Positions 11,906-52,233 of a stretch of DNA of 64,000 nucleotides are shown here, in pieces. Numbering within the stretch: the first letter of the stretch is position 1; every line of letters starts with the position of its first letter. Source of the DNA: a virus (taxonomy: Duplodnaviria; Heunggongvirae; Uroviricota; Caudoviricetes); IMG/VR virus record IMGVR_UViG_3300027798_000013. The stretch is one strand, 5' to 3'. The notes under the pieces are model-generated. The model was given only the letters and a program-made list of their open reading frames with translations. It ran no database searches and was not told the origin of the DNA. Both the position numbers and the translations under genes were made by a program.

Positions 11906-11945
11906 AGGAATATTTATGCGCTAGTATAACTCAGTTAAATACTTT

Positions 11946-13208
11946 ATGAATATAAATACTCCCACATTTTGTATGCATCCTTTTACAGGATTAGCTACCA
12001 GAGAAGATGGCGCTATACAAGTATGTTGTCGTAGTCATCCAATTGGTAACATACAAGATAACACTTTGGAAGAAATATGGAACGGGGATAACATGAAGCG
12101 TATTCGTAAGCAAGTGCTTACAGGTTGTAGACCATCAGAATGCGAGCCTTGTTTTAGATTAGAAGATCAAGGTGTAGAGAGTTTGAGACAGCGACACATC
12201 TCGGGTAAGATTCCCGAAGCCCGTATTAATCTATATCCAACGGCTGTTCAATCTATGAATAGTGATTATACCATGCCGTTTGAGATTCCTACCATGGAAC
12301 TTAAACTAAACAACTTGTGTAATCTTAAATGCCGTATGTGCCATCCGGGAGACAGTACCGCGTGGAATGATTGGGCGGAAGTTAAAGAGTTTTACAAAGG
12401 TGAAGGGCAAGTTATATTTGATATTGTTGAAGCACACAATTTAGAAAAGAAACCGTTACTGGATAAGTTTGAAGATAATCCCAATTGGTGGGCAAGTTTA
12501 GAAAAGAACTTGCCATACTTCCGCCGTGTTGAGTTTGCAGGGGGCGAACCCCTAATGGACCCACAGCACTATCGTATATTAGATATGCTTGCACCTTACA
12601 GTGATCAAATTGAAATCAAATATGCCACTAACTTAACTACGCTGGGCAAGAGTAATCGCACCGTGTGGCAATACTGGCCCAAGTTTAAAAGTGTTGCTGT
12701 TAATGTAAGTATTGACGGAATTGGCGCTAGTTACGAATATGTACGAGGTAATGCTAGTTGGTCAGAAGTAGTGAACAATATTAAACAAATACAAACTATA
12801 CCTAATGTAAGCCGCATAGTAGGTGCGGTAGCTGTGCAGGTTAGCAATGTACTCATATTAGATAAAATGATTGAACTGTTCCTCAACGATTTGGGAATTG
12901 TATTCTACACTAATATGGTACAGTATCCCAATGTGCTATCTGCACAGGTTATTCCTAACGAATTAAAATCGCTTGCTGTTATTAAATTAAAAGCGGTTAG
13001 AGAATTAGTTCCGACTTTTAAATTAGTAAAAGAACATCCAATGTTAGAAGCATTAACTTACAAACAGATTGACGGCATAATTAATTTTATACTAGCGAAG
13101 GATAACACACACTTATGGGATGATTGCATAGAGTATAATCGACGCTTAGATGTTACAAGACAACAGAGTTTCTTTGACGTGACTCCGGAATTTGCTTCTT
13201 ACGTATGA
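11946..13208 (+). CDS. radical SAM enzyme, large type with an N-terminal Cys-rich domain
   Basis: CNLKCRMCHP core. N-terminus reads FCMHPF...VCCRSHP...GCRPSECEPC. Paralog of ORFs 16744..18129 and 43940..45136. Confidence 0.8.
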   Translation: MNINTPTFCMHPFTGLATREDGAIQVCCRSHPIGNIQDNTLEEIWNGDNMKRIRKQVLTGCRPSECEPCFRLEDQGVESLRQRHISGKIPEARINLYPTAVQSMNSDYTMPFEIPTMELKLNNLCNLKCRMCHPGDSTAWNDWAEVKEFYKGEGQVIFDIVEAHNLEKKPLLDKFEDNPNWWASLEKNLPYFRRVEFAGGEPLMDPQHYRILDMLAPYSDQIEIKYATNLTTLGKSNRTVWQYWPKFKSVAVNVSIDGIGASYEYVRGNASWSEVVNNIKQIQTIPNVSRIVGAVAVQVSNVLILDKMIELFLNDLGIVFYTNMVQYPNVLSAQVIPNELKSLAVIKLKAVRELVPTFKLVKEHPMLEALTYKQIDGIINFILAKDNTHLWDDCIEYNRRLDVTRQQSFFDVTPEFASYV

Positions 13209-14032: not shown

Positions 14033-14925
14033 TTAAAGTAACCAGTCGTTGGCCGCATCAGGACAGCATCAAGATAGAATGGAATCTTGGTAAACGATGT
14101 AACTACGACTGTAGTTATTGCCCAGCAAGTATACATGATAACTCAAGCCCGCACACTGACATAGAGATTCTTAAATCCACTGTGGACAGACTAATGACAC
14201 TAGGCAAACCCATACGTCTTAGTTTTACTGGAGGCGAGCCGTGTGTTCATCCTAAGTTTAGTGAGCTAGTAAAATACTGTAAACATGTTGGCATTAGTTG
14301 GATCAGTGTGACAACTAACGGAACATTGCCTTATGAATTTTATTCAGTATTGGAAGCGGATCAAATTGTGTTCAGTATACATTTAGAGTTTGACTGGAGG
14401 CGTGTTTTTAATACTGTAGAAAGTGTAGTAGATTTAACCAACAAAAAAGTCATAGCACAAATAATGGCGCATCACGATTATATGGATGCTGTATTACAAT
14501 TACGTGCTAGATGCTTGTTAGCCCATATTCCTAATACTGTAAGACGTATACGATGGACTGAAGGCGACCACGATTTATTTGATGATATGCGTTATAACAC
14601 AAATGATTTAAACTGGCTCAATGAACAAGAAGCCACTGTGGACGGTAATTGTGTAATAGACGGTGAGCAAATAATACACGCTAACGATGTTATTAAATTG
14701 CACCTAAACAAATACAAAGATTGGACTTGCAACGCAGGTATAGAAAGTCTAATGATAAATTGGAACGGGGATGTACACAGAGCGACTTGTAGAGTCGGTG
14801 GTAGTCTTGGCAACATATATGAAGGCAACTTCGTTGCTCCTAGCGAACCTGTAACTTGTGACCGTAATTTCTGTACCTGCGCGGCTGACATTCCACTTAC
14901 AAAATATGCACATACAAACACTTAA
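14029..14925 (+). CDS. radical SAM enzyme, short type with a C-terminal Cys cluster (SPASM/twitch-like)
   Basis: CNYDCSYCP near the N-terminus. C-terminal CNAGIES...CRVGG...CDRNFCTC. Confidence 0.8.
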   Translation: MIKVTSRWPHQDSIKIEWNLGKRCNYDCSYCPASIHDNSSPHTDIEILKSTVDRLMTLGKPIRLSFTGGEPCVHPKFSELVKYCKHVGISWISVTTNGTLPYEFYSVLEADQIVFSIHLEFDWRRVFNTVESVVDLTNKKVIAQIMAHHDYMDAVLQLRARCLLAHIPNTVRRIRWTEGDHDLFDDMRYNTNDLNWLNEQEATVDGNCVIDGEQIIHANDVIKLHLNKYKDWTCNAGIESLMINWNGDVHRATCRVGGSLGNIYEGNFVAPSEPVTCDRNFCTCAADIPLTKYAHTNT

Positions 14926-15751
14926 CCCTTCCAAATACAAAAGACTATTTACTTTTGGATGCAGTTTTACACGATACCTTTGGCCAACTTGGGCAGACAT
15001 TCTTGCAGAAGATATACCATACTATGAAAACTGGGGTTGTGGTGGCGCGGGCAATCTTTATATTTCTAATGCTATTATGGAAGCCCACAATAGGCATACA
15101 TTTACTGAAGATGATTTGATTGTAGTCATGTGGAGTAACAAAAATAGAGAAGATCGATATGTGGATAACAAATGGATGTTAACTCCTGGAGCAATGCTAG
15201 AAGAACGTTACGGGGCTAAATGGATTAAAAAGTTTTACGATGATCGCGGATGCATGATTAGAGATCTAGCCTTGATTCAATCAACGCAACTTTTCTTGGA
15301 TACACTAGACAGTGATTGGATTAACATGTCTATCAATACGTTTGCCAACGGTGATATCGATAAAATAAAAAAAATCGCTCCTGCATACTTGGAAGGTAAT
15401 GCAGATTACCATCAAGAAATTATTGTTCCATTACATCAGGGTGTTATTTCAGACCTGTTTATAGATCGAGATGTTATTGACTGCTATAAAAATGTATTTT
15501 TAAAGTTACAGCCGTCTGTGCTTAATATGTTACAAGATACTAGTGAATACAAATTGCGAGGCCGTCCTAACAAAAGTGATGGACATCCTACTCCTGCTGA
15601 AATTTTAAAATATTTAGATTTAGTATTTCCGGGCAATACCATTAGTTCCAAAGCTAGAGCTTATGCAGAATCATTTGAAGAACAGATATGGTCCCAAAGA
15701 ACTACTACAGAGATTTTTGAATCTAGATCGCAAACAATCATTAGATTATAA
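14906..15751 (+). CDS. SGNH/GDSL-like hydrolase family protein
   Basis: LFTFGCSFTRY, GAGNLY, SDGHPTP. The homologous N-terminus places the start at the ATG at 14906. Confidence 0.55.
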   Translation: MHIQTLNPSKYKRLFTFGCSFTRYLWPTWADILAEDIPYYENWGCGGAGNLYISNAIMEAHNRHTFTEDDLIVVMWSNKNREDRYVDNKWMLTPGAMLEERYGAKWIKKFYDDRGCMIRDLALIQSTQLFLDTLDSDWINMSINTFANGDIDKIKKIAPAYLEGNADYHQEIIVPLHQGVISDLFIDRDVIDCYKNVFLKLQPSVLNMLQDTSEYKLRGRPNKSDGHPTPAEILKYLDLVFPGNTISSKARAYAESFEEQIWSQRTTTEIFESRSQTIIRL

Positions 15752-16747
15752 GTTTGTTAATTCAGGAAATTTTGTCTTAGTTAAATGTGTTTCTGGAATA
15801 CAGGTACAACACTCCATCTGGCACTTTGATTGTTTAAATTCCGGATTGAATATATCGATAAAGTTATTGTCTAAAATATTATATCTTTGATCAAATAGTG
15901 GCTGTCCACACGATCCTTGTATTACTCCGTCCCAGCTTACATAGATAGAATCCAAACCAATATTACAGTCCCAACCTTTAAAATTAGTCCATCCGCGGTT
16001 AACATACGTATTGGGTGTGGCCAGCACTGGAAGAAATTTATCTTCTAACCAGACAATACTTTCAAATATTTTCATAGACCCGTCAAAAATTAAATTATAA
16101 TTTTTTAAAAACCATGCTGGGTTTGGTAATCTTTTTAATTCCTTGGACATATAAGTCTTTTGTACTGTAGTATATGGAAGATATCCCACAACTTCTTTAG
16201 CTAGTATAAACCAAGGATATTTGCTGTGTGCTTTCATATACTCGATAGCATCAACACACGAGTCCCATATAGTTGGATCCATTAATACTAATATTGTTAC
16301 TTTTTTATTTAAAGAATACAGTATATCAGCAACGTCAATCATGTGGTCGATATCACCTTCTTTGACATGATGTGACAATGTTGCATTATCAATTAAGTGA
16401 CCATTTTCTTTCCACCAACGCAAAGTTCTTGATCCGTTTGATGTAACACTTACGTAGACATCGTTTGATTTTTTTATTTCTAAAATAACTTTATCTAAGT
16501 CTTTCCATAATGTTGGCTCTCCGCCGCCTATATCTAGATGAAATTTAGTTTTTCCTAATTTAGTATACTGATTAAACAAATGTCGAAAATTAGAAATTAC
16601 CATACTGGTATCAGTTGGTACTTTAAAGTTGCCTTCATTTGATCCAGGAAAACAATAATCACACTTGAAATTGCATACGTTACTGGGACTCCATCTTATG
16701 TTTAAAATATTAGTCTTGGCAAGAGATTTTATTTTAATCGGGTTCAT
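15746..16747 (-). CDS. radical SAM enzyme, short SPASM/twitch-like type
   Basis: CNFKCDYCFP. C-terminal CNIGLDS...CGQP...CQMECCTC. Confidence 0.8.
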   Translation of the reverse strand: MNPIKIKSLAKTNILNIRWSPSNVCNFKCDYCFPGSNEGNFKVPTDTSMVISNFRHLFNQYTKLGKTKFHLDIGGGEPTLWKDLDKVILEIKKSNDVYVSVTSNGSRTLRWWKENGHLIDNATLSHHVKEGDIDHMIDVADILYSLNKKVTILVLMDPTIWDSCVDAIEYMKAHSKYPWFILAKEVVGYLPYTTVQKTYMSKELKRLPNPAWFLKNYNLIFDGSMKIFESIVWLEDKFLPVLATPNTYVNRGWTNFKGWDCNIGLDSIYVSWDGVIQGSCGQPLFDQRYNILDNNFIDIFNPEFKQSKCQMECCTCIPETHLTKTKFPELTNL

Positions 16748-18129
16748 AGCAAGTGTTCTAATTCAGGAAATACTTCCCTAGCATCTACATTGCGAATAGC
16801 ATCCAAGTTAACAACATACTCTTTAAAGTCTGGCAACAAATGTGTATGATCTTCTGCTTGGATAAATTTTAAGATGCCCTCCCAACGTTTCCAACCGTAT
16901 GGATTATCTTTCCAAAAATTATCATCTTGCCTATAGTTTTCCCACAACCAGTTTTTAAAGTCAGAAAATTGTTGTACAATTTCTTCCTTGTCTGCTTGGG
17001 GTAAAATCCTAGCACTTAAAAATGTTGGTATGTATAACAAGTGTAAGTTGATGATGCCGCCACCAGTTTGGTATTCGTCAAGTGAAAATTTATTAATCTT
17101 TTTAAATCCTTGAGTCAGTTTCCATTTGGCAAAATCGATAATATGCTTAATGTTAAACACTTGCACCGCGCAGGCTATTGCACAATGTACATTATCCGGT
17201 GCGTTATCCATTAACCACAAGCTACGTTCTATATCAGCCCAGTCAGTTGGGTAGCGAATGTAATTGTTACGTTCCATAACAGCATCTATACTAAATGCAT
17301 ATCGAACTTGTTTGAATTGACTCCAAACACTGATAATATCCTCGTTGACAAATATGCCGTTACTGTTATAACGCAAACTGATATTCTTAGCATAGCCACG
17401 ACGAATGATTTCATCTAAAAAGCGTCTATGCTCTTTGATCATTAATGGCTCGCCACCTGCAAAGTACAATTGAGTTATGTTAGGAATCTGTTCAAACACA
17501 TCATCCCAAAACTCTGGTTTTTCATACCATGTGTTATTGAATGATGCTTTATCAAAGCCCACTTGGTGCAACACAATAGTGCTTTTTGTTTTGGCTACTA
17601 GCTTGTCATAGTCTTGTAACCAGCGACTACTGTCATGCGGACTGCACATAACGCATTTTAGGTTACAAGTATGTCCAAGTCTTAAATCCAAGTATCGTAT
17701 AACAGGAGGAACAGCACCAGTATTATCAGTGTCACTGATAAGTTTATTAAAATCAAGACCGTCACGATTCCACTCATACATTTCCCATAAGCGTTTGCTT
17801 ACGACTCCATTGGATTCTTCTTCGAAACATTTTGTACAGCTGGCAGGAACATTACCTGCCAGCATGGTTAATCTCACGCTACGCATATACTGATTGTTAA
17901 ATGCTTCCAAAGGAGTTTCACGACCAAAGTTCGCAGGAGACCCATCTTCTTTTTTGACTAGCCCCACAGTATGATCTCCTGTAGCCGCGCCGCTAGCATT
18001 AGTGACACAACACAATCTAGCATCACCGTTAGGGCGTGTGGCCAAATGAATCCAGGGCAGAGCGCAGAAAGTCTTGCTTCCTGTCTTTTCTTCGATTAAT
18101 TTTACATAACCTTGTATCTTATCCTGCAT
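16744..18129 (-). CDS. radical SAM enzyme, large type with an N-terminal Cys-rich domain
   Basis: CNLKCVMCSP. N-terminus FCALPW...LCCVT...SCTKCFEEE. Confidence 0.8.
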   Translation of the reverse strand: MQDKIQGYVKLIEEKTGSKTFCALPWIHLATRPNGDARLCCVTNASGAATGDHTVGLVKKEDGSPANFGRETPLEAFNNQYMRSVRLTMLAGNVPASCTKCFEEESNGVVSKRLWEMYEWNRDGLDFNKLISDTDNTGAVPPVIRYLDLRLGHTCNLKCVMCSPHDSSRWLQDYDKLVAKTKSTIVLHQVGFDKASFNNTWYEKPEFWDDVFEQIPNITQLYFAGGEPLMIKEHRRFLDEIIRRGYAKNISLRYNSNGIFVNEDIISVWSQFKQVRYAFSIDAVMERNNYIRYPTDWADIERSLWLMDNAPDNVHCAIACAVQVFNIKHIIDFAKWKLTQGFKKINKFSLDEYQTGGGIINLHLLYIPTFLSARILPQADKEEIVQQFSDFKNWLWENYRQDDNFWKDNPYGWKRWEGILKFIQAEDHTHLLPDFKEYVVNLDAIRNVDAREVFPELEHLL

Positions 18130-36595: not shown

Positions 36596-37324
36596 ATGTC
36601 CCGTTCAGCGTTCAATTGGTCCGAGTTGGATCGAAATACCCTGTATTCCATGCTTTATCAGCTGAAATCAGAAATAGTTGATAAACGGCTAACCATAGGT
36701 GAAATTACCAGCACAATAAGTAAGCATATCAAAGCCCAACTTCCTGTCAAAATAACCAGCAGTAGACACAAGCCCGTTAAGCCAGGCGAAGTTTGGATAG
36801 GTGGTGCTTATTACGCCGATCTCGACAGCGCAGGAAATAAACGATTTATTGAAGTAGAACTGGTATTTCCAACCACTGCTGACACTATGAAAACCAGCGC
36901 ATATCGGTGGGAGCGTATGTGTTGCTTATTTGCCGATACAGTACTACACGAAATCATACACACACGCCAATATCGTGCTAGACGCTTCAAAGATATTCCA
37001 GGTTACGAAAGTACCGCCTATTATGCCAAGGATCGAAGAGAACAAGAGTACTATGGGCATCGTGATGAAATGGGCGCACACAGTTTCAATCTAGCACAAG
37101 ACATGATTGATAAGTTTGGTTTTGATACTCGAGCTATCAAAGAATACTTGGACAGTCCAGTACCAAAACGTGTTCGTTCAAATGGCTGGGGACGTTTTAT
37201 GAAAGCATTTGAGTACAATCATAGTCATCCAAAAGTCATACAGATGAAGCATAAAATTATGACTCAATTGGAAAATGCCTACGCAGGCAAGCCATTTAAG
37301 ACCACAAACCACTTGACATACTGA
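36596..37324 (+). CDS. HExxH-motif protein (SprT-like or zinc-metallopeptidase-like)
   Basis: DTVLHEIIHTRQY. Confidence 0.35.
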   Translation: MSRSAFNWSELDRNTLYSMLYQLKSEIVDKRLTIGEITSTISKHIKAQLPVKITSSRHKPVKPGEVWIGGAYYADLDSAGNKRFIEVELVFPTTADTMKTSAYRWERMCCLFADTVLHEIIHTRQYRARRFKDIPGYESTAYYAKDRREQEYYGHRDEMGAHSFNLAQDMIDKFGFDTRAIKEYLDSPVPKRVRSNGWGRFMKAFEYNHSHPKVIQMKHKIMTQLENAYAGKPFKTTNHLTY

Positions 37325-37373
37325 TAATTACACTGTATAATAAACACTTATACAGTTAACTATCGGAGTAAAC

Positions 37374-39071: not shown

Positions 39072-39908
39072 ATGAGATCGCATTATTGGACTATTGGAAA
39101 ATTTTCAGACTGGCTTCGCGGCACACCCAAGCTCAAGTGTGGCACTAGCGAAGAATGGGATGCCTGGTATAAGACTGCTGAAAAAGCACATCCTATCCGT
39201 TACTGGATTGCCGAAGAAGGTCTAGACCACCTTCAAAAATTTGTTTACTACATACCGGACAAGCTAAATGACATACGCTATTATATTAACAATCGCTGGG
39301 TTACTCACAGCCATGCTCTTACCGCCCATCCTCGAGACATACAGCCGGGCAACTGGAGTGATGTGGGCAATCGCTTTCTTCCTTGTCTTTTCAATGAGCT
39401 TGTTAATTTTGTTGAAATAGAACAAGCGTGGCATCACTGCTTGTGGAGTGATGAAGCCAAGACCCAATTCAATGTGCCTTGGTACCGCACTGGTTGGCTA
39501 CGACTACGTACATGGCGCAGTCCAGAAGCCGGCATGGAATATTTGAAATGGGCCAGTGAACTCACTGTTGGCGAGGACATGGGTGCTGAACCTGGTAGCG
39601 AAGGATTTGGGGAACCGACCTGGCAAGCCAAAAGTGCTAAGGAAATTATTGAGCTTTACACTTGGTGGACTGTGACCTATCGCGCTCGTCCAGACCCGCA
39701 TAACGCCAGTGGCTGGAGTGCGTACTGTGAAGCAAGCCGTATTGCCAACGGCGGCAAACTAAGTTGGAGTAGTGACAAGAGCCCTGAACTCAAAGCCATG
39801 AGCGATGCCGCACACAAAAAGCTACAAGAAATCGAAGTGGCTTACGAAGCAGAAGATGAAGCCATGATGATTCGTCTTATCAAAATACGTCAAAGTCTTT
39901 GGACCTAA
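39072..39908 (+). CDS. hypothetical protein
   Basis: ORF track. Confidence 0.5.
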   Translation: MRSHYWTIGKFSDWLRGTPKLKCGTSEEWDAWYKTAEKAHPIRYWIAEEGLDHLQKFVYYIPDKLNDIRYYINNRWVTHSHALTAHPRDIQPGNWSDVGNRFLPCLFNELVNFVEIEQAWHHCLWSDEAKTQFNVPWYRTGWLRLRTWRSPEAGMEYLKWASELTVGEDMGAEPGSEGFGEPTWQAKSAKEIIELYTWWTVTYRARPDPHNASGWSAYCEASRIANGGKLSWSSDKSPELKAMSDAAHKKLQEIEVAYEAEDEAMMIRLIKIRQSLWT

Positions 39909-41308
39909 TGAAGGGCGATGAAGTAACTAACGTAAACGGCCGCTTTGAATCACATTACTTAAATGATTCGGAGTCGGTCTTTTCTGCCCTTAACAAAGTC
40001 AGCCCTAGTTTCTGTCTTGCCAAGTGGTACAATGTCAGCATACACATACCCACAGGTCGCACACACAGTTGTTATCATCCGCCCACACATCAAATTCCTC
40101 TGAAGGAAATTGCTATTGATGTATCAGCACTACACAATACCAAATATAAAAAGAATCAGCGTAAACTCATGCTGAAAGGTGAGCGGCCGATCGAGTGCGG
40201 ATTTTGCTGGCAAATTGAAGACAGCGGCACACAACTAAGTGACAGAGCTTATCGTAGCAAGGATGTGTATGAGCCTGGCTTGATAGAAGAAGCGCAGTTG
40301 GTAGAGAATCCTAATCCACGTTATGTGGAAGTAAACTTTAATCAAGCCTGTAACTTGAAATGTAGTTATTGCTCTCCGCACCTAAGCACAGAGTGGAACA
40401 AGGAAATAGACCGACACGGGCCTTACTTGTTAGCAGACAATAAAACACACAACGACACACAATGGATGCGGAATCAAAACATGGTTCCCAACAACAGTTT
40501 AGACAATCCATACTTGTTAGCTTTTTGGGAATGGTTACCACAGATATATCCCACACTACACACCTTCCGCATGACTGGCGGCGAACCTTTGATGGACAAG
40601 AATACATTCCGTATGTTTGATTACGTTAAAGAACACCCAAGCGAGCGGTTACATCTAAGCATCACATCAAACTGTTGTCCACCTAAAGGACAATGGACTA
40701 AGTTCATGACCAGCTTGAAAGAGATTACAGATACGGATGCTGTTAATCACTTTATGTTGTTCTGTAGTTTAGACTCGTGGGGTGCTCAAGCAGAGTATAT
40801 TCGTAATGGTTTAGACTTCTGTACCCTATATACTAACATAACTGACTACTTGAAGAACAGTAGCAAACACAGTCTTACCTTTATTATCACATTCAATGCC
40901 CTGAGCTATACTGGCTTTGTTAAGTACATTGAGAACATACATAAATTAAGACAAGAATACAACACAGATAGACAGCTGATCTGGTTTGACATTCCTATGC
41001 TGAATGACCCTATGTGGATGAATCCCAAACTGCTACCTAACATGGTGTCTGAATTAGAACGTGCTATAGATTTTATGAAGGCAAATGAAGAAGGCGAACA
41101 CAATCGCTTTAAGGGTTTTAAAGATTTTGAAATCAGCAAAGTACAACGCCTGATTGACTGGGTAAAGAGTGACAGCAAGTTTGACAGAGCCACAGCAATG
41201 AAGAACTTTTATCTATTCTTTAGCCAGCATGATGAACGCAGGGGAACAAGTTTTTTAAATACATTCCCCGAACTAACAGACTTTTGGAACACTTGTGAAA
41301 AGACCTAA
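39899..41308 (+). CDS. radical SAM enzyme, tandem paralog 1 of 4
   Basis: CNLKCSYCSP core. N-terminus SPSFCLAKWYN...SCYHPPTH...ECGFCWQIED. Confidence 0.8.
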   Translation: MDLMKGDEVTNVNGRFESHYLNDSESVFSALNKVSPSFCLAKWYNVSIHIPTGRTHSCYHPPTHQIPLKEIAIDVSALHNTKYKKNQRKLMLKGERPIECGFCWQIEDSGTQLSDRAYRSKDVYEPGLIEEAQLVENPNPRYVEVNFNQACNLKCSYCSPHLSTEWNKEIDRHGPYLLADNKTHNDTQWMRNQNMVPNNSLDNPYLLAFWEWLPQIYPTLHTFRMTGGEPLMDKNTFRMFDYVKEHPSERLHLSITSNCCPPKGQWTKFMTSLKEITDTDAVNHFMLFCSLDSWGAQAEYIRNGLDFCTLYTNITDYLKNSSKHSLTFIITFNALSYTGFVKYIENIHKLRQEYNTDRQLIWFDIPMLNDPMWMNPKLLPNMVSELERAIDFMKANEEGEHNRFKGFKDFEISKVQRLIDWVKSDSKFDRATAMKNFYLFFSQHDERRGTSFLNTFPELTDFWNTCEKT

Positions 41309-42644
41309 CGAAACCGATTTAGAATATAAAAAACGTGTACTGGATGCTATTAGCCCCAGCTTCTGCGGAGCCAAGTGGTACAATGCCACTATCTGGCTTG
41401 GATCAGGGCAAACAACAAGTTGTCATCATCCGCCTGCACATAAAGCAGACATACAAATAGTTAAATTTAATCCCAAGGCAATTCATAACACTCCCCAGAA
41501 GAAAGAAGATCGCCGTAAGATGTTGGCTGGAGAACGTCCTTCAGGGTGTGAGTACTGCTGGAAGATTGAAGATATGGGTGTGGACGCTGTAAGTGACAGA
41601 CCTTACAAGAGTATGACATACACCGAAGAAGCATTGCTGGAAGCAACAAGAACTCCAGTGGACCAGGATGTGGATTTGCAAACACTTGAAATAGCATTTG
41701 ACCGTACTTGTCAGTTTGCTTGTAGTTATTGTAACCCAGCGTTCAGTACAACATGGGTTAAAGATATTAAGAAGAACGGTCCTTATGTTAATCTAGTCAC
41801 AGATGGTCGTGGACATTTTACTCATGTACACGAAAACGATCAGTTGTTTGACTTTCATGAAGAGAATCCGTATATTGAAGCATTTTTTAAATGGTGGGAA
41901 AGTGACCTACACCGCACACTGAAAGAGTTACGCATCACAGGTGGCGAGCCCTTGATGAGTGGGCACACTTGGAAGTTGTTTGATTGGTTTAAAGCAAACA
42001 AAAATAAGAGTACATGTCAGCTAGCCATTAATAGTAATTTGGGATTCGGGCAAGATGTAGTACAACGTATGCTAGACAGTACTGACGGTGTTAAGATGAT
42101 GCTGTATACCAGCAATGAAAGTGTAGGGCCACATGCTGAATACATTCGTGACGGATTGGAATGGAGTCAATGGATCAGTAATATGGAATTCTTGCTTAAA
42201 GCAGAACGTATGCGTCTAAGTGTTATGATGACTATTAACGCATTATGCTTGGAAAGTTTGCCTGAGATGTTGGATCAAGTAATGGCTTGGAAGAAGACGT
42301 ATGGACAATGGCACATTAACTTTAGTCTTAACATACTGCGTTTTCCAAGTTTCCAAAGTGCATTAACTTTGCCGGATCACGTTAGACAAGAATATAATAA
42401 ACGTCTTGCTGAGTGGTATGAACTTAATCGTGGCAATCCGGATTTGAATAACTTTGAAAAGAGTAATATTGAACGTTTGATAGATTACTTAGACATTGTT
42501 AAAACTCCACACGGTGAGGGTTATGTACAAGCCACAGCACAAAAAGATTTCAAACAATTTTACGAACAATATGATGTTCGTAGAGGAAAAGATTTCCGTA
42601 AAACATTTAGCCCCATGCTTGTAGAATGGTATGAATCTATTTAA
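41295..42644 (+). CDS. radical SAM enzyme, tandem paralog 2 of 4
   Basis: CQFACSYCNP. N-terminus SPSFCGAKWYN...SCHHPPAH...CEYCWKIED. Confidence 0.8.
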   Translation: MKRPNETDLEYKKRVLDAISPSFCGAKWYNATIWLGSGQTTSCHHPPAHKADIQIVKFNPKAIHNTPQKKEDRRKMLAGERPSGCEYCWKIEDMGVDAVSDRPYKSMTYTEEALLEATRTPVDQDVDLQTLEIAFDRTCQFACSYCNPAFSTTWVKDIKKNGPYVNLVTDGRGHFTHVHENDQLFDFHEENPYIEAFFKWWESDLHRTLKELRITGGEPLMSGHTWKLFDWFKANKNKSTCQLAINSNLGFGQDVVQRMLDSTDGVKMMLYTSNESVGPHAEYIRDGLEWSQWISNMEFLLKAERMRLSVMMTINALCLESLPEMLDQVMAWKKTYGQWHINFSLNILRFPSFQSALTLPDHVRQEYNKRLAEWYELNRGNPDLNNFEKSNIERLIDYLDIVKTPHGEGYVQATAQKDFKQFYEQYDVRRGKDFRKTFSPMLVEWYESI

Positions 42645-43950
42645 TTGGTTTAAACCCAAGGATCCTGCAAAGAAATATTTTTACTTTAAAGAAGAAAAAA
42701 TGGATCCTGTTAGCCCTACATTTTGTGGGGCTAAATGGTTTGAAAGTACTATATGGCTGTATCAGGGAACTACTGCCAGTTGTCATCATAACCCGTTCCA
42801 TAAGATACAGTTGGATCAAAACGATCCTGGCTCTTTACATAACACTCCTGTCAAATTAAAAGAACGTATAGACATGTTGGCAGGCGGCAAGCCAACCAAT
42901 TGTAGTTATTGCTGGAATGCGGAAGCTAATGGAACACTGAGTGATCGTGTGATAAAAACTAACAGCGTACCTACAAAAATATTTAAACGTTGGTTTCAAA
43001 GTAAACCGCTGGTTGTTACTCCTACACTTTTAGAAATTGCTTTTGAACGTACTTGTAATTTGGCCTGTGCATATTGTGGGCCAAGTTTTAGTAGCAAATG
43101 GGCAAGTGATATAAAGAAGCGCGGTCCGTATGTAAACTTGATAACAGACAGTCGTTACAACACCGACTCTGGTAATGATGTTATAGATAACGATCATAAT
43201 CCATACACTGAATCATTTTTTAAATGGTGGCCTCTCATAGAACGTGATTTGAACTGTTTACGCATCACAGGTGGTGAGCCGTTAATGAGTCCAAATTTTT
43301 GGCGCTGTTTGGATATGTTTAAAAAATTCAAAGGCACATTAATAGTCAACACTAATTTGATTTGCTACAAGGATGAACTTCAGTCTCTACTGAACAAAAC
43401 CCGTAAGGTAGAATTACGCATACACACCAGTATGGAAAGCAATCTAGACCAAGCTGAATATGTTAGGGATGGTTTTGATAAAACAGTATGGTTAGCCAAC
43501 GTACATTTTATATTACATCATAGACGTGTTATGCTAAATGTCACCACTGCCATTAATAATATGGCTGTTTGGAGTTTTATCGATTATCTGAAACTCATGC
43601 GTGAGTTAAAGACTAAGTACGGAAAGAAGCGTGTGGAGATCAATTGTAACTTTGTACATTACCCTGCGTTTATGCGTGTACAAATGATTCCCGCCGCACA
43701 GCGTAGGATACTAGCCGATGAAGTCAATAATTGGTTCGTGTTGAATAAAAAACTGCTTAACGATAAAGAACAACAGCACATATTGCGATTCATAAGTACT
43801 ATGGATGCAGGCTGGATTGATCAAGATTACGAAATTAAAGATGCGTACAATGATTTGAAGAACTTCATTGTGCAATATGACACCCGTAGAGGAAAGAATT
43901 TTAGACATGCCTTGGATAAAAGATTTGTTGAGTGGTACGATGGACTCTAA
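42631..43950 (+). CDS. radical SAM enzyme, tandem paralog 3 of 4
   Basis: CNLACAYCGP. N-terminus SPTFCGAKWFE...SCHHNPFH...CSYCWNAEA. The start may instead be the ATG at 42700. Confidence 0.8.
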   Translation: MNLFNWFKPKDPAKKYFYFKEEKMDPVSPTFCGAKWFESTIWLYQGTTASCHHNPFHKIQLDQNDPGSLHNTPVKLKERIDMLAGGKPTNCSYCWNAEANGTLSDRVIKTNSVPTKIFKRWFQSKPLVVTPTLLEIAFERTCNLACAYCGPSFSSKWASDIKKRGPYVNLITDSRYNTDSGNDVIDNDHNPYTESFFKWWPLIERDLNCLRITGGEPLMSPNFWRCLDMFKKFKGTLIVNTNLICYKDELQSLLNKTRKVELRIHTSMESNLDQAEYVRDGFDKTVWLANVHFILHHRRVMLNVTTAINNMAVWSFIDYLKLMRELKTKYGKKRVEINCNFVHYPAFMRVQMIPAAQRRILADEVNNWFVLNKKLLNDKEQQHILRFISTMDAGWIDQDYEIKDAYNDLKNFIVQYDTRRGKNFRHALDKRFVEWYDGL

Positions 43951-45136
43951 CTGGTACTGTAAATTACCCTGGACTGGATTCAGTAATGACCCAGACGGCA
44001 AAGCACGGCCCTGTTGCCTGTACAAGGATCACATCAAAGACGATGCTGGTCAGATAATGTATGTGCAAACCAGCTCAGTCAAGGAGATATTCTCCAGCAA
44101 ATACATGAAGGATTTACGACAGCAGTTTCGTGACGGTGCCAAACCCAGTGCTTGCGAAACTTGTATTGTTGACGAACAGAACAACTACACAAGCAAGCGT
44201 CAACGTCACATTGAAGGTGATTTTTATTTTTTACCGGACTATACTAAAGAGCCAGAATTCCCAGTAGAGTATCAAATGATACTGAGCAATGCCTGTAACT
44301 TGAAATGTCGTAGCTGTACGCCGAGTCATAGCAGTTTGTGGCAAGCTGAACACAAAGTTATCTGGGGTAATACTGGTTACAAAATGCCCGAAGGACAGAG
44401 TGGCGAAAACGACAGCGTGTTATGGAACAAGCGTAGTGAGTGGATGCCCAGTGTTGCTAGATTAGAAATTGTAGGCGGTGAGCCTTTTTACATTAATCGT
44501 TGGAAGATACTGTGGCAGGAGTTTATTGAACAAGACTTGGCTAAGAATATCAACATGGATATTAGTACTAACTGCACTATCTATGCTGGAGATACAGTTG
44601 CAGATCTAGTAGAGAATTTTAGACACATTGGGCTCGGGCTTAGTGTTGACGGCATGGGCAAAGTATACAATTACTTAAGACATCCTGGCGAATGGGAAGA
44701 AGTCAAGGCCAATATGTTTGCCTATAACGACATGATTAAAACTATCAATCGCAGAAAAATAGGACCAAGCGTTAGCCATACTATTGGTTGGATCAATGCT
44801 TGGGAGTTACCAGAATTTCATACGTTTGTCAAAGATGAACTAGATGAATTTAAAATATGGAATAACATTATTCACTATCCGCCGCATATGGCAGTGTATA
44901 TGATTCCTGCCACACTTAAAGATCGTATTAAGGCCAAGTGGGCTACCTACGATTGGGGCAGATATAAAAACGACATCGCAGGCATTGTTAGTTTGATGTA
45001 TAGTCAACAGCCCAGTGATGATGAAATCAAACAAGCCTACAAAACATTCAAACAACACGATACTGTGCGTAATGAAAACTTGTTGGATATTTTGCCGGAA
45101 GAGATTGTGGAAGAGATCAGACCTTACTATGAATAG
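43940..45136 (+). CDS. radical SAM enzyme, tandem paralog 4 of 4 (large type)
   Basis: CNLKCRSCTP. N-terminus YCKLPW...PCCLY...ACETCIVDE. The track start lies 72 nt upstream inside the previous gene. Confidence 0.8.
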   Translation: MDSNWYCKLPWTGFSNDPDGKARPCCLYKDHIKDDAGQIMYVQTSSVKEIFSSKYMKDLRQQFRDGAKPSACETCIVDEQNNYTSKRQRHIEGDFYFLPDYTKEPEFPVEYQMILSNACNLKCRSCTPSHSSLWQAEHKVIWGNTGYKMPEGQSGENDSVLWNKRSEWMPSVARLEIVGGEPFYINRWKILWQEFIEQDLAKNINMDISTNCTIYAGDTVADLVENFRHIGLGLSVDGMGKVYNYLRHPGEWEEVKANMFAYNDMIKTINRRKIGPSVSHTIGWINAWELPEFHTFVKDELDEFKIWNNIIHYPPHMAVYMIPATLKDRIKAKWATYDWGRYKNDIAGIVSLMYSQQPSDDEIKQAYKTFKQHDTVRNENLLDILPEEIVEEIRPYYE

Positions 45137-45650
45137 AATTTGGATATTTGGAGATAGTTTTGCGTCAAGCTCTGATAGCAAATCATGGAGCAAGATGCTT
45201 GGTCCCAATGTTATTAATCTTGCCAGCAATGGTAGTAGCGAATATAGAATATGGAAAACATATCAACAGCACAAGATAAACATCAATCCCAGCGACCGTG
45301 TAATTTTTTGTCACACCAGTTTTAGCAGAGTATATCTAAAAAATACAGAGACTATATGGAGTAGATTACTACCAAGTCATCCATTGTGCGATTTAATCTT
45401 AGCAGATATACACGATAAAAAAGAAGATAAATTTATTAGTATTTTAAAACAAATATGGGATGAAATTTATTTCAAAGATACATACGAACTAATGTACAAG
45501 GATCTAACATCTGTACCTAACAGCATACATTTAAATTTTTTTGATAGCAGTTGCTACTACGATATATGGACCAGTAACCCTGGCAATATAAACCATATGG
45601 ACGATGCTGGTAATTGTATGGTATTAGAAAATATCTTAGAAGAATTATGA
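45129..45650 (+). CDS. SGNH/GDSL-like hydrolase, short form
   Basis: MNRIWIFGDSFASS (GDS block I), ASNGSS (block III). The ATG overlaps the upstream stop. Confidence 0.55.
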   Translation: MNRIWIFGDSFASSSDSKSWSKMLGPNVINLASNGSSEYRIWKTYQQHKININPSDRVIFCHTSFSRVYLKNTETIWSRLLPSHPLCDLILADIHDKKEDKFISILKQIWDEIYFKDTYELMYKDLTSVPNSIHLNFFDSSCYYDIWTSNPGNINHMDDAGNCMVLENILEEL

Positions 45651-46360
45651 GAATAATAGCATTTGGCAGTAGTCATACTACTGGATATAATTTGCAGGAT
45701 ATCAAAGGAGATACTGATGCTATTAGTAAATTTGCATATCCTCAGGTTGTTGCCAACGACTTAAAGTGTGAATGTATTAATCTAGCACGTACAGGAAATG
45801 GCTTAGATCAGATCTATACAGATGTATACGGATTTTTGCCTAGCAGTTTGCCCGATGACATACTACTTGTTCATTTACCAACAAACACAAGTTGGTTTAA
45901 ATTGATTACTTCTGAAAATGAAGCAATTAGTATAATTAAACCTGATAGCTTAGATCCTAAGGGTCGACAATTTAAGACAGCCTTAAATCAGTACTATGGT
46001 ATACTTACCGGCGACAATCATTTTAATCGATTATGGTATATAAATTTTTACAGTTTAATAAATTTATTACATTTTCATAAAAAGAAATTCATTTGGTTTA
46101 CCGATTCGTATTTGGATGTGTATGAAAAATTTGAGTATTACATGGACAATATGCCCAAGTGTACAGCTACAGAAATTGAGAAGATGAAATTGGCAACTCC
46201 TGATCCTAGTCAAAATCATTTGAAGGAAACATTTTCAGATTATTTAATTCGAAATTTTCCAGCAACTCAGATGTCTTGCGGCCACTATAACATTGACGGG
46301 CACGACATTTGGGCAAGAACTATTTTGGTTCCCTACATAAAAGAGCGGTTGACATCATGA
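45647..46360 (+). CDS. SGNH-like hydrolase family protein
   Basis: MRIIAFGSSHTTGY, RTGNGLDQ, DGHDIW (blocks I, III and V-like). ATGA coupling. Confidence 0.45.
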   Translation: MRIIAFGSSHTTGYNLQDIKGDTDAISKFAYPQVVANDLKCECINLARTGNGLDQIYTDVYGFLPSSLPDDILLVHLPTNTSWFKLITSENEAISIIKPDSLDPKGRQFKTALNQYYGILTGDNHFNRLWYINFYSLINLLHFHKKKFIWFTDSYLDVYEKFEYYMDNMPKCTATEIEKMKLATPDPSQNHLKETFSDYLIRNFPATQMSCGHYNIDGHDIWARTILVPYIKERLTS

Positions 46361-46384
46361 CCCAGAGACGCTATAATACATACA

Positions 46385-47614
46385 TTGTTAAACAAACAGG
46401 AGCAGAAATTGGCTACTAAAGCACCAGTAAAAAAGTCACGCATTACTAAGAAACAAGTAACCGCACATCGTACTCGTGCTGTCAAAGACTATAGCCCAGT
46501 TTGGGAAGGTTGCGAAACTTGGGACGCAGACACATTCCATCGTCATTTCAAACGCTCGATGGATTTCTATCGTTTAGAAAGTGACATTAAGAGTTACAAG
46601 CCTGCTGTTGCCAAGTGGATGGAAACTGTTGGTTGCGTCAAATCTGACATTACAGCGTTCAAAAAAGTAAAAGATTCGCGTGTTGGTACCACAATGGGTG
46701 CAGTGGCCTGCTGTTTGAATCGCGGTATGACTCCACACCGCGCTGACTTTAATCAAGGACGCGACACGGCCGCTTGGTTGCGAGCTGAGATTGTCAAAGT
46801 TATTGCTGAAGGCAAAAATGATGTTGACCCGGACGAAGTCAAAGCGGCTGAAGCGGCCAAACCATCGGTGTATGTTCCAACCATCCAAGAGCGGGTTAAA
46901 GAATCTGCCTACAGAATGACTGAAGAAATTGAAGATGCCATCGAAGGCTTCCAAACTGATCCAGAATCTTTTGATCCCAAAGCATTTAAGATGCTTAACT
47001 TGCTCAAAGGCAAAGAAGTCAAAGCCGCTCACGCAAGGATCATTAAAGGGTTCTACAGCAAGGATTTAGCTGAGCTGGAGGAGTTGGCATCCGGCGGTGC
47101 AGACGAACAGCTACGTGAGGGCTACAGCCACCGTACGAAGAAGCAAATCAAGAACTTGATTGCATTCTATCAAGAGATTATGAGTGCATGTGATATGCTG
47201 GCACAAGAAGCCAAAGTTAATCGTGCGCCACGTGCTAAGAAAGCAGTTCCAGCAGAAAAGATTGTTGCCAAACTCAAGTACATGAAGACCAACGAGCCTC
47301 TAAAACTTGTGAGTATTAACCCAGCTGACATTATTGGCACTAGCGAACTGTGGATCTTCAACACTAAAACACGCAAGTTGGGCAAGTATGTTGCTAAAGA
47401 GTTTAATGTGCTAGGTGTTAAAGGCACCACAATCACTGGATTTAATGAGAATACCAGTGTACAAAAGACTGTTCGCAAGCCTGAGGACAAGCTCAAGGAA
47501 TTCAAAGCCGCTGGCAAGGTACAGTTGCGTAAGTTCTTGGAAGATATCAACGCCACAGACACTCGAATGAACGGACGCATTAACGAAGATACTATCCTAC
47601 TCAAAGTAGCATAA
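46385..47614 (+). CDS. hypothetical protein with a basic N-terminus; start codon uncertain (TTG)
   Basis: Long ORF followed by a strong terminator. No ATG sits near the AGGAG site. Confidence 0.5.
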   Translation: MLNKQEQKLATKAPVKKSRITKKQVTAHRTRAVKDYSPVWEGCETWDADTFHRHFKRSMDFYRLESDIKSYKPAVAKWMETVGCVKSDITAFKKVKDSRVGTTMGAVACCLNRGMTPHRADFNQGRDTAAWLRAEIVKVIAEGKNDVDPDEVKAAEAAKPSVYVPTIQERVKESAYRMTEEIEDAIEGFQTDPESFDPKAFKMLNLLKGKEVKAAHARIIKGFYSKDLAELEELASGGADEQLREGYSHRTKKQIKNLIAFYQEIMSACDMLAQEAKVNRAPRAKKAVPAEKIVAKLKYMKTNEPLKLVSINPADIIGTSELWIFNTKTRKLGKYVAKEFNVLGVKGTTITGFNENTSVQKTVRKPEDKLKEFKAAGKVQLRKFLEDINATDTRMNGRINEDTILLKVA

Positions 47615-47618
47615 TTAG

Positions 47619-47653
47619 AAAGCCCAGGACTCCTGGGCTTTCTTTTGGCTTTT
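47619..47653 (+). terminator. rho-independent terminator
   Basis: AAAGCCCAG-GACTC-CTGGGCTTT hairpin followed by CTTTTGGCTTTT. Confidence 0.7.
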
Positions 47654-51558: not shown

Positions 51559-51846
51559 CTATAATTGGCCTATAGTTTTTAAGCTACTAGCCGGTATATC
51601 CCAAATCTTACGTGCTTCTACACCTTTGAGTTGTGCAAACTTTTTTGGGTCACAGTCAGCACACACATGGTAAAAATTATTGTTTATGCGTTTGGGATCC
51701 ATACTTCCTTTATCTCGATAAATTACTTCGCTACATGCATCACATTGTAGCACAACCACAGTTTTTTTACGCTTGTAGGTATGAGTAATGCCCCTATTGC
51801 TGGTGCGTACATGATGTGATTCTCTAAACTCAGTGCGTATGAACAT
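51559..51846 (-). CDS. zinc-ribbon (CxxC...CxxC) basic protein
   Basis: CDAC...CADC. Confidence 0.45.
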
Positions 51847-51904
51847 ATACTATTTACATTCGGATTATAAAATTGGTTTGATAAATATCATATCGAGGGC
51901 AATC

Positions 51905-52228: not shown

Positions 52229-52233
52229 TAAAA

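Follow-up and report, generated by a model that had tools for sequence, protein, structure and literature searches.

Why should a phage carry four radical SAM (rSAM) genes in a row, followed by two genes for SGNH-like proteins, and what would these proteins act on together? The window, that is the whole stretch of 64,000 nucleotides analysed here, comes from a large environmental phage that has the RsoM2USA/XacN1 jumbo myoviruses among its relatives.

Genes and transcription of the block

The ORF coordinates place six genes on the + strand in 39908-46360, with every gene overlapping its predecessor. This agrees with the sequence-only reading, which had described consecutive, translationally coupled rSAM genes on the + strand with two further genes directly after them. 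The features of the region are:

37313..37341, + strand: sigma-70 promoter with perfect consensus (TTGACA-N17-TATAAT), lying 33 nt ahead of the DNA ligase gene
39072..39908, + strand: u278, 278 aa, stop codon sharing 1 nt with the rS1 start
39908..41308, + strand: rS1, 466 aa, N-terminal-twitch radical SAM enzyme, clade A
41295..42644, + strand: rS2, 449 aa, GTG start, N-terminal-twitch radical SAM enzyme, clade A
42631..43950, + strand: rS3, 439 aa, N-terminal-twitch radical SAM enzyme, clade A, lineage-restricted paralogue
43907..45136, + strand: rS4, 409 aa from the ATG at 43907, N-terminal-twitch radical SAM enzyme, clade B
45129..45650, + strand: hyd1, 173 aa, short SGNH-like protein with an FGDSF motif
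45647..46360, + strand: hyd2, 237 aa, SGNH-fold protein (predicted) with an FGSSH motif
46349..46377, + strand: second perfect sigma-70 consensus promoter, within the 3' end of hyd2 and ahead of the gene at 46385-47614
46385-47614: phrog_11903 gene, next downstream of hyd2
47617-47643: strong terminator after the phrog_11903 gene

The overlaps are 1 nt (u278/rS1), 14 nt (rS1/rS2 and rS2/rS3), 11-74 nt (rS3/rS4), 8 nt (rS4/hyd1) and 4 nt (hyd1/hyd2). An alternative start for rS1 is the TTG at 39899 (469 aa); on identical contigs the gene is called from the ATG at 39908. The start of rS4 is ambiguous (43868, 43877, 43907 or 43940), giving a protein of about 398-422 aa.

Three perfect matches to the sigma-70 consensus are found in the window where 0.06 are expected, and no terminator-like site was found on the + strand from the promoter at 37313 to position 46360. 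The promoter at 37313 is likely to be the start of a transcription unit that ends with hyd2, and the predicted promoter at 46349 marks the downstream boundary of the cassette. The u278 protein has no match in Pfam, NCBIfam or PHROG. A 498-aa gene resembling virion structural proteins of cyanophages lies about 1.3 kb (one gene) downstream of the array. Other genes near the cassette code for a QueD/PTPS homologue, UvdE and an HhH-GPD protein.

Radical SAM and SGNH-like proteins

All four rSAM proteins belong to NF033640 (N_Twi_rSAM), a very large family that is already catalogued and from whose other members they are indistinguishable. They score 312.4 (rS1), 295.9 (rS2), 236.1 (rS3) and 281.1 bits (rS4) against a curated cutoff of 170 bits, and they cover positions 1 to 392-397 of the 398 in the model. 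Pfam PF04055 gives them just 23.5-25.8 bits, below its gathering score of 29.5, and the Pfam SPASM model matches residues 31-99 of rS4 (E 4.9e-8). No assayed member, solved structure or paper on NF033640 turned up in the literature searched, and we know of no characterised member.

The architecture consists of a twitch domain with four Cys, then the radical SAM core with CxxxCxxC, then a helical C-terminal region. The four Cys that precede CxxxCxxC (36, 55, 97 and 100 in rS1; C24, C43, C85 and C88 in rS2) are at least 97% conserved among 360 family members. The cluster motifs are CNLKCSYC (rS1, at 148), CQFACSYC, CNLACAYC and CNLKCRSC, and GGEP is found in all four proteins. The residues conserved throughout the family, seven Cys together with the GGEP, N, S and R positions, are all kept in rS1-rS4, which are predicted to be catalytically intact. 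In the AF2 model of rS2 (pLDDT 89.8) the twitch region is a beta-hairpin with helices.

Alignment of the four paralogues confirmed the shared N-terminal and core motifs and the division into three plus one that had been noticed by eye. The motif SP(S/T)FC(L/G)AKW(Y/F)...SC(Y/H)H(P/N)P...C.(F/Y)CW describes rS1, rS2 and rS3, and YCKLPW...CC describes rS4. The two motif types are thus real, but the earlier wording needs correction for single-residue departures in rS1 and rS3, and rS4 had been called large although it is the smallest of the four. Clustering places rS1-rS3 in one super-clade and rS4 in another, together with two genes of island 1, the other group of rSAM genes in the window. The members of these families in island 1 are:

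11946..13208, + strand: fifth N_Twi_rSAM, clade B (local HMM of the four paralogues, 4e-51)
13205-14032: SGNH-like paralogue directly after the 11946 gene (comp12 HMM, 5.7e-9)
14858..15751, + strand: fourth SGNH-like (hyd/DUF6071) member (comp12 HMM, 3.3e-10), with the canonical D..HPTP block V motif
16744..18129, - strand: sixth N_Twi_rSAM, clade B (local HMM, 4.8e-44)

The type encoded at 16744 is the commonest one from the third position onwards in viral arrays. Five rSAMs of other types are also present in the window. The number of rSAM genes in the 64 kb is 11 and not 12 as first stated, since 11 ORFs have CxxxCxxC and 11 match Pfam Radical_SAM at E<=1e-3. Asp/Asn beta-hydroxylases are encoded in island 1 as well.

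The two genes directly after the rSAMs had been read as hydrolases, and this holds in that hyd1 and hyd2 are predicted to be divergent SGNH-fold esterase or acyltransferase paralogues. Neither protein has a Pfam match at E<=0.1, with the GDSL models PF00657 and PF13472 included, nor a match in NCBIfam or PHROG. For hyd2 the SGNH fold is predicted from an AF2 model (pLDDT 88.2), for which the best Foldseek match in PDB is E. coli TAP (1jrl, E 8e-5). At E<=1e-3 the 13 best PDB matches consist entirely of SGNH/GDSL enzymes, including TAP/lysophospholipase L1, rhamnogalacturonan acetylesterase (1deo), GDSL lipases and CE2 esterases. With such enzymes hyd2 shares the predicted fold, the N-terminal F-G-x-S nucleophile motif and the C-terminal His, but the identity is 12-14% and hyd2 lacks the DxxH Asp. 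One homologue of hyd2 (60% identical) has a precomputed PF00657 match and another is named lysophospholipase L1-like esterase. The assignment of hyd1, which is shortened compared with the known enzymes, comes from homology: it aligns with the hyd2 homologues, keeps F-G-x-S and His, and is matched (E 1.9e-8) by an HMM of the recurrent neighbour family comp12, whose representative matches Pfam DUF6071. Among 28 aligned SGNH-like sequences F-G-x-S is invariant and the His nearly so. Both hyd2 (CGH) and hyd1 have no Asp at the position three residues ahead of this His; the island-1 paralogues have D..HPTP. SGNH-like partners occur in 18 of 80 related viral loci, and the window has four.

Candidate substrates

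A chromosomal homologue in Bacteriovorax lies between GT4 glycosyltransferases and an ABC-2 exporter of Wzm/Wzt type, and a 7-copy array in a marine gammaproteobacterium adjoins an NDP-sugar epimerase/dehydratase and a nucleotide-diphospho-sugar transferase. The 120 bacterial neighbours include GT2 (5), GT1/4 (5), ABC transporters (4) and epimerases (2), as raw counts from a small census with no formal background model. The 132 viral neighbours inside or after arrays include DegT sugar aminotransferase, UDP-glucose/GDP-mannose dehydrogenase, NeuB, Polysacc_synt_2/epimerase and NodU-type carbamoyltransferase; these loci are related by phylogeny, and their common gene order may therefore be due to descent and not function. 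A fusion with a GT2 glycosyltransferase occurs in one family member, and a GT8/glycogenin-like family (weak match, E 1e-3) is found upstream of most arrays. GT2 enzymes glycosylate peptides too. No glycosyltransferase or sugar-nucleotide gene was detected in the window, among the 25 commonest Pfam families. This context, which is circumstantial, speaks for carbohydrate substrates more than for fibre peptides or nucleotides.

The reading that we tentatively prefer, with a little less than even confidence, is that the cassette is the distal part of a unit of about 9 kb in which four NF033640 rSAMs from two ancient subclades and two SGNH proteins tailor a carbohydrate-containing substrate. The unit seems to be transcribed by the host RNA polymerase. 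Each rSAM would cleave SAM at its CxxxCxxC cluster and take a hydrogen atom from one such substrate, every enzyme at a position of its own. This substrate might be a nucleotide-sugar or a glycan bound for a cell-surface polysaccharide or glycoconjugate. The substrate radical would be resolved with the help of a fully Cys-ligated auxiliary [4Fe-4S] cluster in the twitch domain, with oxidation, epimerisation, dehydration, decarboxylation or C-C bond formation as the possible outcome. A joint action of rS1 and rS2 as a pair is probable, and the SGNH proteins might attach or strip O-acyl groups on the same molecule. This would leave the infected cell with a changed surface glycan, or would decorate a component of the virion.

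Among the closest known enzymes, BlsE (cytosylglucuronate decarboxylase) and MoaA are twitch-type rSAMs that act on sugar-nucleoside or nucleotide substrates, and their auxiliary domain is C-terminal. About 215 core residues align with BlsE (7vob) and MoaA (1tv7) at 14-15% identity, but the auxiliary domain of rS1-rS4 is N-terminal. The NCBIfam models for MoaA give rS1-rS4 12-34 bits against cutoffs of 231-325 (at best 34 against 284).

A serious alternative, although an unlikely one, is that the rSAMs are RiPP- or anSME-like maturases that introduce cross-links, epimerisations or oxidations into a tail fibre, another virion protein or a secreted peptide, with the SGNH proteins trimming or acylating the product. 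Tail-fibre-like genes flank most viral arrays, most of which come directly after them, and one array is then followed by an Mtd_N/PTL_trimer receptor-binding protein. The structural-like 498-aa gene downstream of the array, the fusions of family members to a subtilisin-like protease and to repeat domains ECExH(S/T)(S/T), the M16 peptidase and SPASM rSAM that also adjoin the Bacteriovorax homologue, and the beta-hydroxylases of island 1 point in the same direction. However, rS1-rS4 have no match to an RRE/PqqD domain in Pfam at E<=0.1, and the overlapping genes of the operon leave no space for a small precursor-peptide ORF. The early-type sigma-70 promoter is shared with the DNA ligase gene and not with structural genes, and neighbouring sugar-nucleotide genes and ABC-2 exporters are not what a peptide maturase would lead one to expect. 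Relative to the SPASM/twitch maturases anSME (4k36), SkfB (6efn), SuiB (5v1q) and CteB (5wgg), the domain order of rS1-rS4 is permuted, and there are four auxiliary Cys, which imply one auxiliary cluster, against seven or eight. The NCBIfam models for RiPP-type peptide maturases give rS1-rS4 11-31 bits against cutoffs of 340-855.

It is distinctly less probable that what the enzymes make or tailor is a small molecule or lipid, as a phage-encoded secondary or auxiliary metabolite, in place of a polymer. The window encodes oxygenases of TauD type and Asp/Arg-hydroxylase type, a fatty-acid desaturase, a sulfotransferase and an APS-kinase-like protein, which would suit such a pathway, as would the rSAMs of other types and a GNAT-like motif seen by eye in one fusion. 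These genes of the window are nevertheless more than 18 kb away, in the other island and outside the operon, and polyketide, NRPS and lipid-pathway genes are not enriched among the bacterial and viral neighbours of arrays.

Modification of phage DNA or of nucleotide precursors against host restriction, by base hypermodification or by tailoring of sugars linked to the DNA, is very unlikely. rSAMs are known in thymidine hypermodification pathways, and the predicted transcription from one early-type promoter together with the genes for DNA ligase and a MazG-like protein would fit, as would the nearby QueD/PTPS, UvdE and HhH-GPD genes. But the PTPS, ligase and UvdE genes belong to the backbone and are present whatever the rSAM content, and the bacterial homologues are in polysaccharide-type loci. 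The bacterial and viral neighbours of arrays included no hydroxymethylase, DNA glycosyltransferase or DpdA-like gene, and the NCBIfam models for QueE (at best 18.8 bits, cutoff 260) and viperin (23 bits, cutoff 180) score, like those for MoaA, far below their cutoffs.

Assembly of the array and related phages

The block is a modular accessory cassette, an assembled set of genes in a variable slot of the backbone between u278 and the phrog_11903 gene. The slot holds one rSAM gene in the related loci L109 and L122, three in L004 and four in the window; in L125 and L127 the third and fourth rSAM genes differ from those of the window. The hydrolases are lost in the close relative L130, where hyd2 is deleted. 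u278 adjoins the slot in L004, L109, L122, L125, L129 and L130 whatever the number of rSAM genes, and it is a backbone gene of the lineage outside the mobile rSAM set. At least three rSAM copies are present in 54 of the 80 related viral loci, with a maximum of eight, and 137 of 207 neighbouring rSAM pairs in viral loci are directly adjacent and on the same strand.

The rS1 orthogroup has 93 members in 91 loci and the rS2 orthogroup 57 members in 54 loci, so that each occurs about once per locus, and the order with the rS1-type before the rS2-type is usually kept across loci. The same order is found in at least one fusion of an rS1-type and an rS2-type module, P0160. Among the 150 highest-ranking family representatives, about 30 have two or three matching stretches in 800-1400 aa, and a build from several modules was borne out in the seven of them whose sequences were read. 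For rS3 the best relative outside near-identical contigs is 56% identical (L125), and the gene is absent in L004 and L127; the rS4 orthologues are 84% (L125), 74% (L127) and 57-59% (L004) identical. Selection on all six genes is strongly purifying, with dN/dS of 0.04-0.05 (rS1), 0.02-0.04 (rS2), 0.06-0.07 (rS3), 0.02-0.03 (rS4), 0.08 (hyd1) and 0.10 (hyd2); the value for u278 is 0.12-0.20.

It is hardly credible that the array arose by recent local amplification and contains redundant or decaying copies: the rSAM genes are adjacent, alike in length and share motifs, and rS4 is split in two in the otherwise identical contig L003, but the paralogues are just 20-39% identical in pairs, rS1, rS2 and rS4 are each closer to orthologues in other phages than to the paralogues here, and dN/dS and the conserved catalytic residues show no decay in any of the four.

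The idea of diverged paralogues with position-specific chemistry on a polymer is supported in part, as regards the divergence, the separate conserved orthogroups and the intact residues and selection. The array is no in-situ tandem duplication, and its membership shifts among close relatives. Methylation had been among the proposed reactions; a cobalamin-dependent one is unlikely because no B12-binding domain was detected in rS1-rS4 with Pfam and NCBIfam. The four paralogues probably do distinct jobs on a shared substrate.

On a wider scale, it is possible, although we consider it somewhat doubtful, that N-terminal-twitch rSAM arrays constitute an unrecognised and very widespread phage-borne system for combinatorial radical editing of glycans. 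Such a system would combine two to eight modules with glycosyltransferases, carbamoyltransferases and SGNH acyl-esterases, and rS1 and rS2 would be an obligate pair that is sometimes fused. If so, sugars on the host envelope or on the fibres of the phage itself would be rewritten, and cassettes would be shuffled among phages and predatory or marine bacteria in the manner of O-antigen loci. This shuffling would then drive diversity in host range and superinfection exclusion.

A similar behaviour has been described for pelagimyophages, where rSAM 'gene cassettes' are found near tail-fibre genes in a hypervariable island for host recognition (PMC7029224). Those cassettes come and go between similar genomes, like the content of the u278-phrog_11903 slot and of the 80 viral loci. 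The paper assigns its rSAMs neither to a family nor to a function, and the present phage differs in lineage, being of the RsoM2USA-like jumbo type.

Relatives in cultured phages are isolated matches as compared with the four-gene array here. The rS2 model matches the 'MoaA/NifB/PqqE family protein' of Vibrio phages KVP40 and phi-pp2 (Q6WHP4, I6XCF1) with a TM score of 0.72-0.74 when normalised to the target and 0.56-0.58 when normalised to the query. ORF202 of Ralstonia phage RsoM2USA is 52% identical to rS2, and that genome has a second matching place. These proteins are annotated just generically or, as in RsoM2USA, as hypothetical.

The gene block and its transcription

Six open reading frames (ORFs) lie on the + strand at 39.9-46.4 kb, four for radical SAM (rSAM) proteins (rS1-rS4) and two for SGNH-like proteins (hyd1 and hyd2), and a gene for a protein of 278 amino acids (u278) precedes them:

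39072-39908, +, u278, gene directly upstream of rS1
39908-41308, +, rS1, ORF with NF033640 match
41295-42644, +, rS2, ORF with NF033640 match
42631-43950, +, rS3, ORF with NF033640 match
about 43907-45136, +, rS4, ORF with NF033640 match
45129-45650, +, hyd1, ORF, SGNH-like
45647-46360, +, hyd2, ORF, SGNH-fold model

Each ORF overlaps its predecessor, from u278/rS1 (a stop-start overlap) to hyd1/hyd2 by 1, 14, 14, 11-74, 8 and 4 nt. The four rSAM proteins match nearly the full length of the curated NCBIfam model NF033640, "twitch domain-containing radical SAM protein", with 312, 296, 236 and 281 bits for rS1 to rS4 (cutoff 170 bits). The ORFs and these scores confirm the tandem block proposed in the sequence-only reading. 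With Pfam, Radical_SAM is sub-threshold on rS1-4 and SPASM is found on the N-terminus of rS4. The alignment shows that every rSAM copy has four N-terminal cysteines, CxxxCxxC and GGEP. The division into two motif classes is also real: rS1-3 with SPxFCxAKW...SChHPP...CxYCW (clade A) cluster together and rS4 with YCKLPW...CC (clade B) stands apart, grouping with two family members (11946-13208 and 16744-18129) in island 1, the first rSAM-rich region of the window. The window was earlier credited with 12 rSAM genes; our count is 11. Membership among QueE, MoaA, viperin, anSME, RiPP maturases or B12-dependent methylases was rejected on NCBIfam model comparison.

Perfect sigma-70 sites occur three times on the + strand, compared with 0.06 expected by chance, and there is one strong terminator-like hairpin:

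30095-30123, +, perfect sigma-70 consensus promoter, TTGACA-N17-TATAAT
37313-37341, +, perfect sigma-70 consensus promoter, 33 nt upstream of the ligase gene
46349-46377, +, perfect sigma-70 consensus promoter, within the 3' end of hyd2, ahead of the next gene
47617-47643, +, strong intrinsic-terminator-like hairpin, 12-bp stem with 7 GC pairs, T-run

The three sites suggest early-type transcription units for the host RNA polymerase in that part of the genome. Because of the positions of the promoters at 37313 and 46349 and the placement of the terminator, the ligase, MazG, u278, rS1-4 and hyd1-2 genes appear to form a single transcription unit for the host polymerase. The phrog_11903 gene (46385-47614) has the hairpin directly 3' of it and appears to be transcribed by itself from a perfect promoter of its own.

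Paralogue age, selection and the wider family

The array did not originate by recent redundant duplication, which is excluded by the low identity between paralogues, separate orthogroups, low dN/dS and intact conserved residues. In the alignment rS1 is 34%, 28% and 20% identical to rS2, rS3 and rS4, respectively, and rS2 is 38-39% identical to rS3. In 124 related loci the rS1-type genes (93 members in 91 loci) and the rS2-type genes (57 members in 54 loci) fall into two distinct groups when the threshold is set at 45% identity; they are usually adjacent with rS1 first. Orthologues of rS4 in relatives have 57-84% identity; rS3 is restricted to its own lineage, and its best relative beyond near-identical contigs is 56% identical. 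Comparison with contigs whose proteins are 91-98% identical gave dN/dS values of 0.02-0.07 for the rSAM genes and 0.08-0.10 for the hydrolase genes. In an alignment of 360 family members, 18 positions are conserved at ≥90%, and each of rS1-4 retains all of them. The invariant residues R73, R102 and R285 are candidates for an anion-binding (nucleotide) site. Judged from these comparisons and from the changing content of their slot, the paralogues are old, functional and modular.

The block occupies a variable slot between u278 and phrog_11903. The backbone runs ClpP, DNA ligase, MazG-like, u278, the slot, phrog_11903, a structural-like protein of 498 amino acids, PTPS, UvdE, an IscA-like protein and a giant ORF, and the same order is found in relatives with 91% identity on a 304-kb contig and about 66% on a 373-kb contig. 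A protein identical to rS2 is present on metagenomic contigs of up to 208 kb. Two related loci (L109 and L122) have one rSAM gene each in the slot, L004 has three and lacks rS3, and in L127 rS3 is missing and a further clade-B copy is present. In L125 a 56%-identical gene takes the rS3 position and there are extra genes, including one for a DUF6492 protein. Both hydrolase genes are replaced by a 36-amino-acid ORF (11841-11951) in L130, where rS2 is 97% identical, and rS4 is split into pieces of 263 and 140 amino acids in the otherwise identical L003 (7263-8531).

The 498-amino-acid protein has segments in common with cyanophage virion structural and baseplate proteins. The IscA-like Fe-S assembly gene (51833-52228) precedes the giant ORF (52216-64000, +), which is open to the window end with at least 3,928 amino acids (3,431 to 4,695 in the calls for relatives) and could not be placed convincingly in any Pfam family. 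In a megablast search with the 6.5-kb block, none of 50,697 phage records matched. Among cultured phages, a clear homologue of rS2 was seen only in the Ralstonia jumbo phage RsoM2USA (ORF202, 52% identity, annotated hypothetical), whose paper does not discuss it; the cultured phage KVP40 also encodes an rSAM relative.

The family is usually found in multi-paralogue arrays in variable host-interaction regions of environmental phages. At least 584 members were confirmed in a scan of viral contigs, and searching 1.84 billion cluster representatives with a profile gave 6,095 at E≤1e-30, counted as clusters at 50% identity. Among 80 viral loci fetched, at least three family genes within 21 kb were found in 54 and at least four in 42, with a maximum of eight, and 137 of 207 neighbouring pairs are directly adjacent on the same strand. 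The sequence analysis confirms the block as real and under selection, a probably co-transcribed cassette that combines four rSAM enzymes of the N-terminal-twitch type with two SGNH-fold proteins. The cassette is one instance of a very common phage module.

Of the best 150 representatives, about 30 show two or three matching stretches over 800-1400 amino acids, and seven of nine such sequences inspected are clear multi-module fusions. In P0160 an rS1-type module is followed by an rS2-type module, both with intact cysteine sets; this fusion order is the same as the gene order in the block, which argues that the two types act together. The rS1-like enzymes P0263 and P0266 carry, at residues about 60-360, three to eight N-terminal repeats of about 35-45 amino acids with the motif ..ECExH(S/T)(S/T)x(F/Y)(I/V).., which might be a fused substrate or docking domain.

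Literature searches for the NF033640/N-terminal-twitch rSAM family gave no account of it and no characterised member, nor are these genes mentioned in the moraphage, amoC-phage or RsoM2USA papers. In pelagimyophages, rSAM cassettes are described in a tail-fibre "host recognition cluster", with no function assigned there (PMC7029224).

The SGNH-like proteins

Neither hyd1 nor hyd2 has a match in the Pfam, NCBIfam and PHROG profile libraries. PDB sequence searches with both gave only noise, so a fold search was needed. The AlphaFold model of hyd2, with 28 homologues as input, has a pLDDT of 88; in the PDB it most closely matches E. coli thioesterase I/lysophospholipase L1, rhamnogalacturonan acetylesterase, GDSL lipases and CE2 esterases. 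In the family alignment F-G-x-S is invariant and the C-terminal histidine nearly so. These features show that the earlier label "SGNH-like" is right for the fold, but the catalytic aspartate is not conserved in hyd1 or hyd2. The former is a shortened paralogue of the latter (28% identity). Two paralogues in island 1 have the canonical block V:

13205-14032, +, hyd paralogue, D..HPTP block V
14858-15751, +, hyd paralogue, D..HPTP block V

They belong to an overlapping run (11946-15751, +) in which N_Twi_rSAM, SGNH-like, another rSAM and SGNH-like genes alternate, and the pairing of rSAM and hyd genes is common to this run and the rS1-hyd2 block.

The gene just upstream of the RsoM2USA rSAM gene (L044 11180-12022; record 128198-129043) is annotated "hypothetical protein". 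Its product has GCS and DHPLEDGHKLWA motifs and resembles the hyd family weakly but collinearly (hhalign E 0.0035, probability 9%), from which the pairing may also exist in this cultured phage; we regard this as a lead only. The gene is unrelated to u278.

Candidate substrates

Bacterial context was drawn from long chromosomal contigs (L013, 1.8 Mb; L019, 0.94 Mb), because several contigs in metagenome-assembled genomes (MAGs) may be phage DNA binned with bacteria: L006, L008 (Haliscomenobacter MAG) and L022 (Legionellales MAG) have the same conserved block as viral contigs, with arrays of 5-6 copies. The 1.8-Mb Bacteriovorax contig has a single family copy, with GT4 glycosyltransferases on one side and an ABC-2 exporter on the other. 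On a marine gammaproteobacterial contig, seven copies adjoin an NDP-sugar epimerase/dehydratase and a nucleotide-diphospho-sugar transferase, together with a 2OG oxygenase and a PNP_UDP_1-family nucleoside phosphorylase/nucleosidase. After other rSAMs, the most frequent families of 120 bacterial neighbours are GT2 (5), GT1/4 (5) and ABC transporters (4). The 132 viral neighbours inside or after arrays include DegT aminotransferases, UDP-glucose/GDP-mannose dehydrogenases, NeuB, Polysacc_synt_2/epimerases, carbamoyltransferases and methyltransferases. An rS2-like module is fused to a GT2 glycosyltransferase in P0196, and the family upstream of most arrays has a weak glycogenin/GT8 resemblance (E 1e-3).

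Adjoining this GT8-like family upstream of most viral arrays is a conserved family of roughly 300 amino acids with a DGDN motif (comp1), which is fused to an rS1-like module in P0224 (hhalign probability 99.6%). It is GT-A-like by eye, but we do not class it as a glycosyltransferase: it has no PDB sequence match, and hhalign against a GT2 domain or the GT8-like family was not significant. The window itself has none of the families that are conserved upstream of other viral arrays.

5'-Deoxyadenosine is a product of many rSAM enzymes. A PNP_UDP_1-family gene lies inside a 7-copy bacterial array (L026, 15212-15769), and its product, if an MTA/SAH-type nucleosidase, could clear this compound.

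With slightly less than even confidence, we favour a stepwise, position-specific radical tailoring of a carbohydrate-containing substrate, on which the SGNH proteins would carry out acyl editing. As expected from family knowledge, each rSAM enzyme would cleave SAM, abstract a hydrogen atom from the substrate and transfer electrons via a four-cysteine auxiliary cluster. Other clues run counter to this reading. Tail-fibre-like genes lie ahead of most viral arrays, and one array is followed by a gene for an Mtd-type receptor-binding protein. Some family members are fused to a subtilisin-like domain or to Cys/His/Ser-rich repeats, the Bacteriovorax copy also has an M16 peptidase and a SPASM rSAM as neighbours, there is no glycosyltransferase among the 25 commonest Pfam families of the window, and the pelagimyophage cassettes, too, belong to a tail-fibre cluster. 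Modification of a protein or fibre is the main rival, at clearly lower confidence. Chemistry on small molecules or lipids, or related to DNA, ranks lower still.

If the carbohydrate hypothesis is true, radical chemistry would join the known ways in which phages remodel cell-surface or virion glycans. The six genes form a compact operon with clear limits, each gene is conserved and under selection, and there are close natural variants without single components: the hydrolases (L130), rS3 (L004) and intact rS4 (L003). The operon is therefore a practical entry point to the biochemistry of the family, and could help to test how phages use their many radical enzymes.

Island 1 also encodes a Sulfotransfer_2 protein (9424-10017, +) and an APS-kinase-like P-loop protein with GLPGSGKT (20033-20824, -), which suggest a phage sulfation route of PAPS supply and transfer; both genes have rSAM and oxygenase genes of island 1 around them. 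Another kind of rSAM (4657-5706, +), with an N-terminal "HMPTM" zinc-ribbon domain (PF23545), adjoins TauD-type and Asp/Arg-hydroxylase-type oxygenases and a fatty-acid desaturase.
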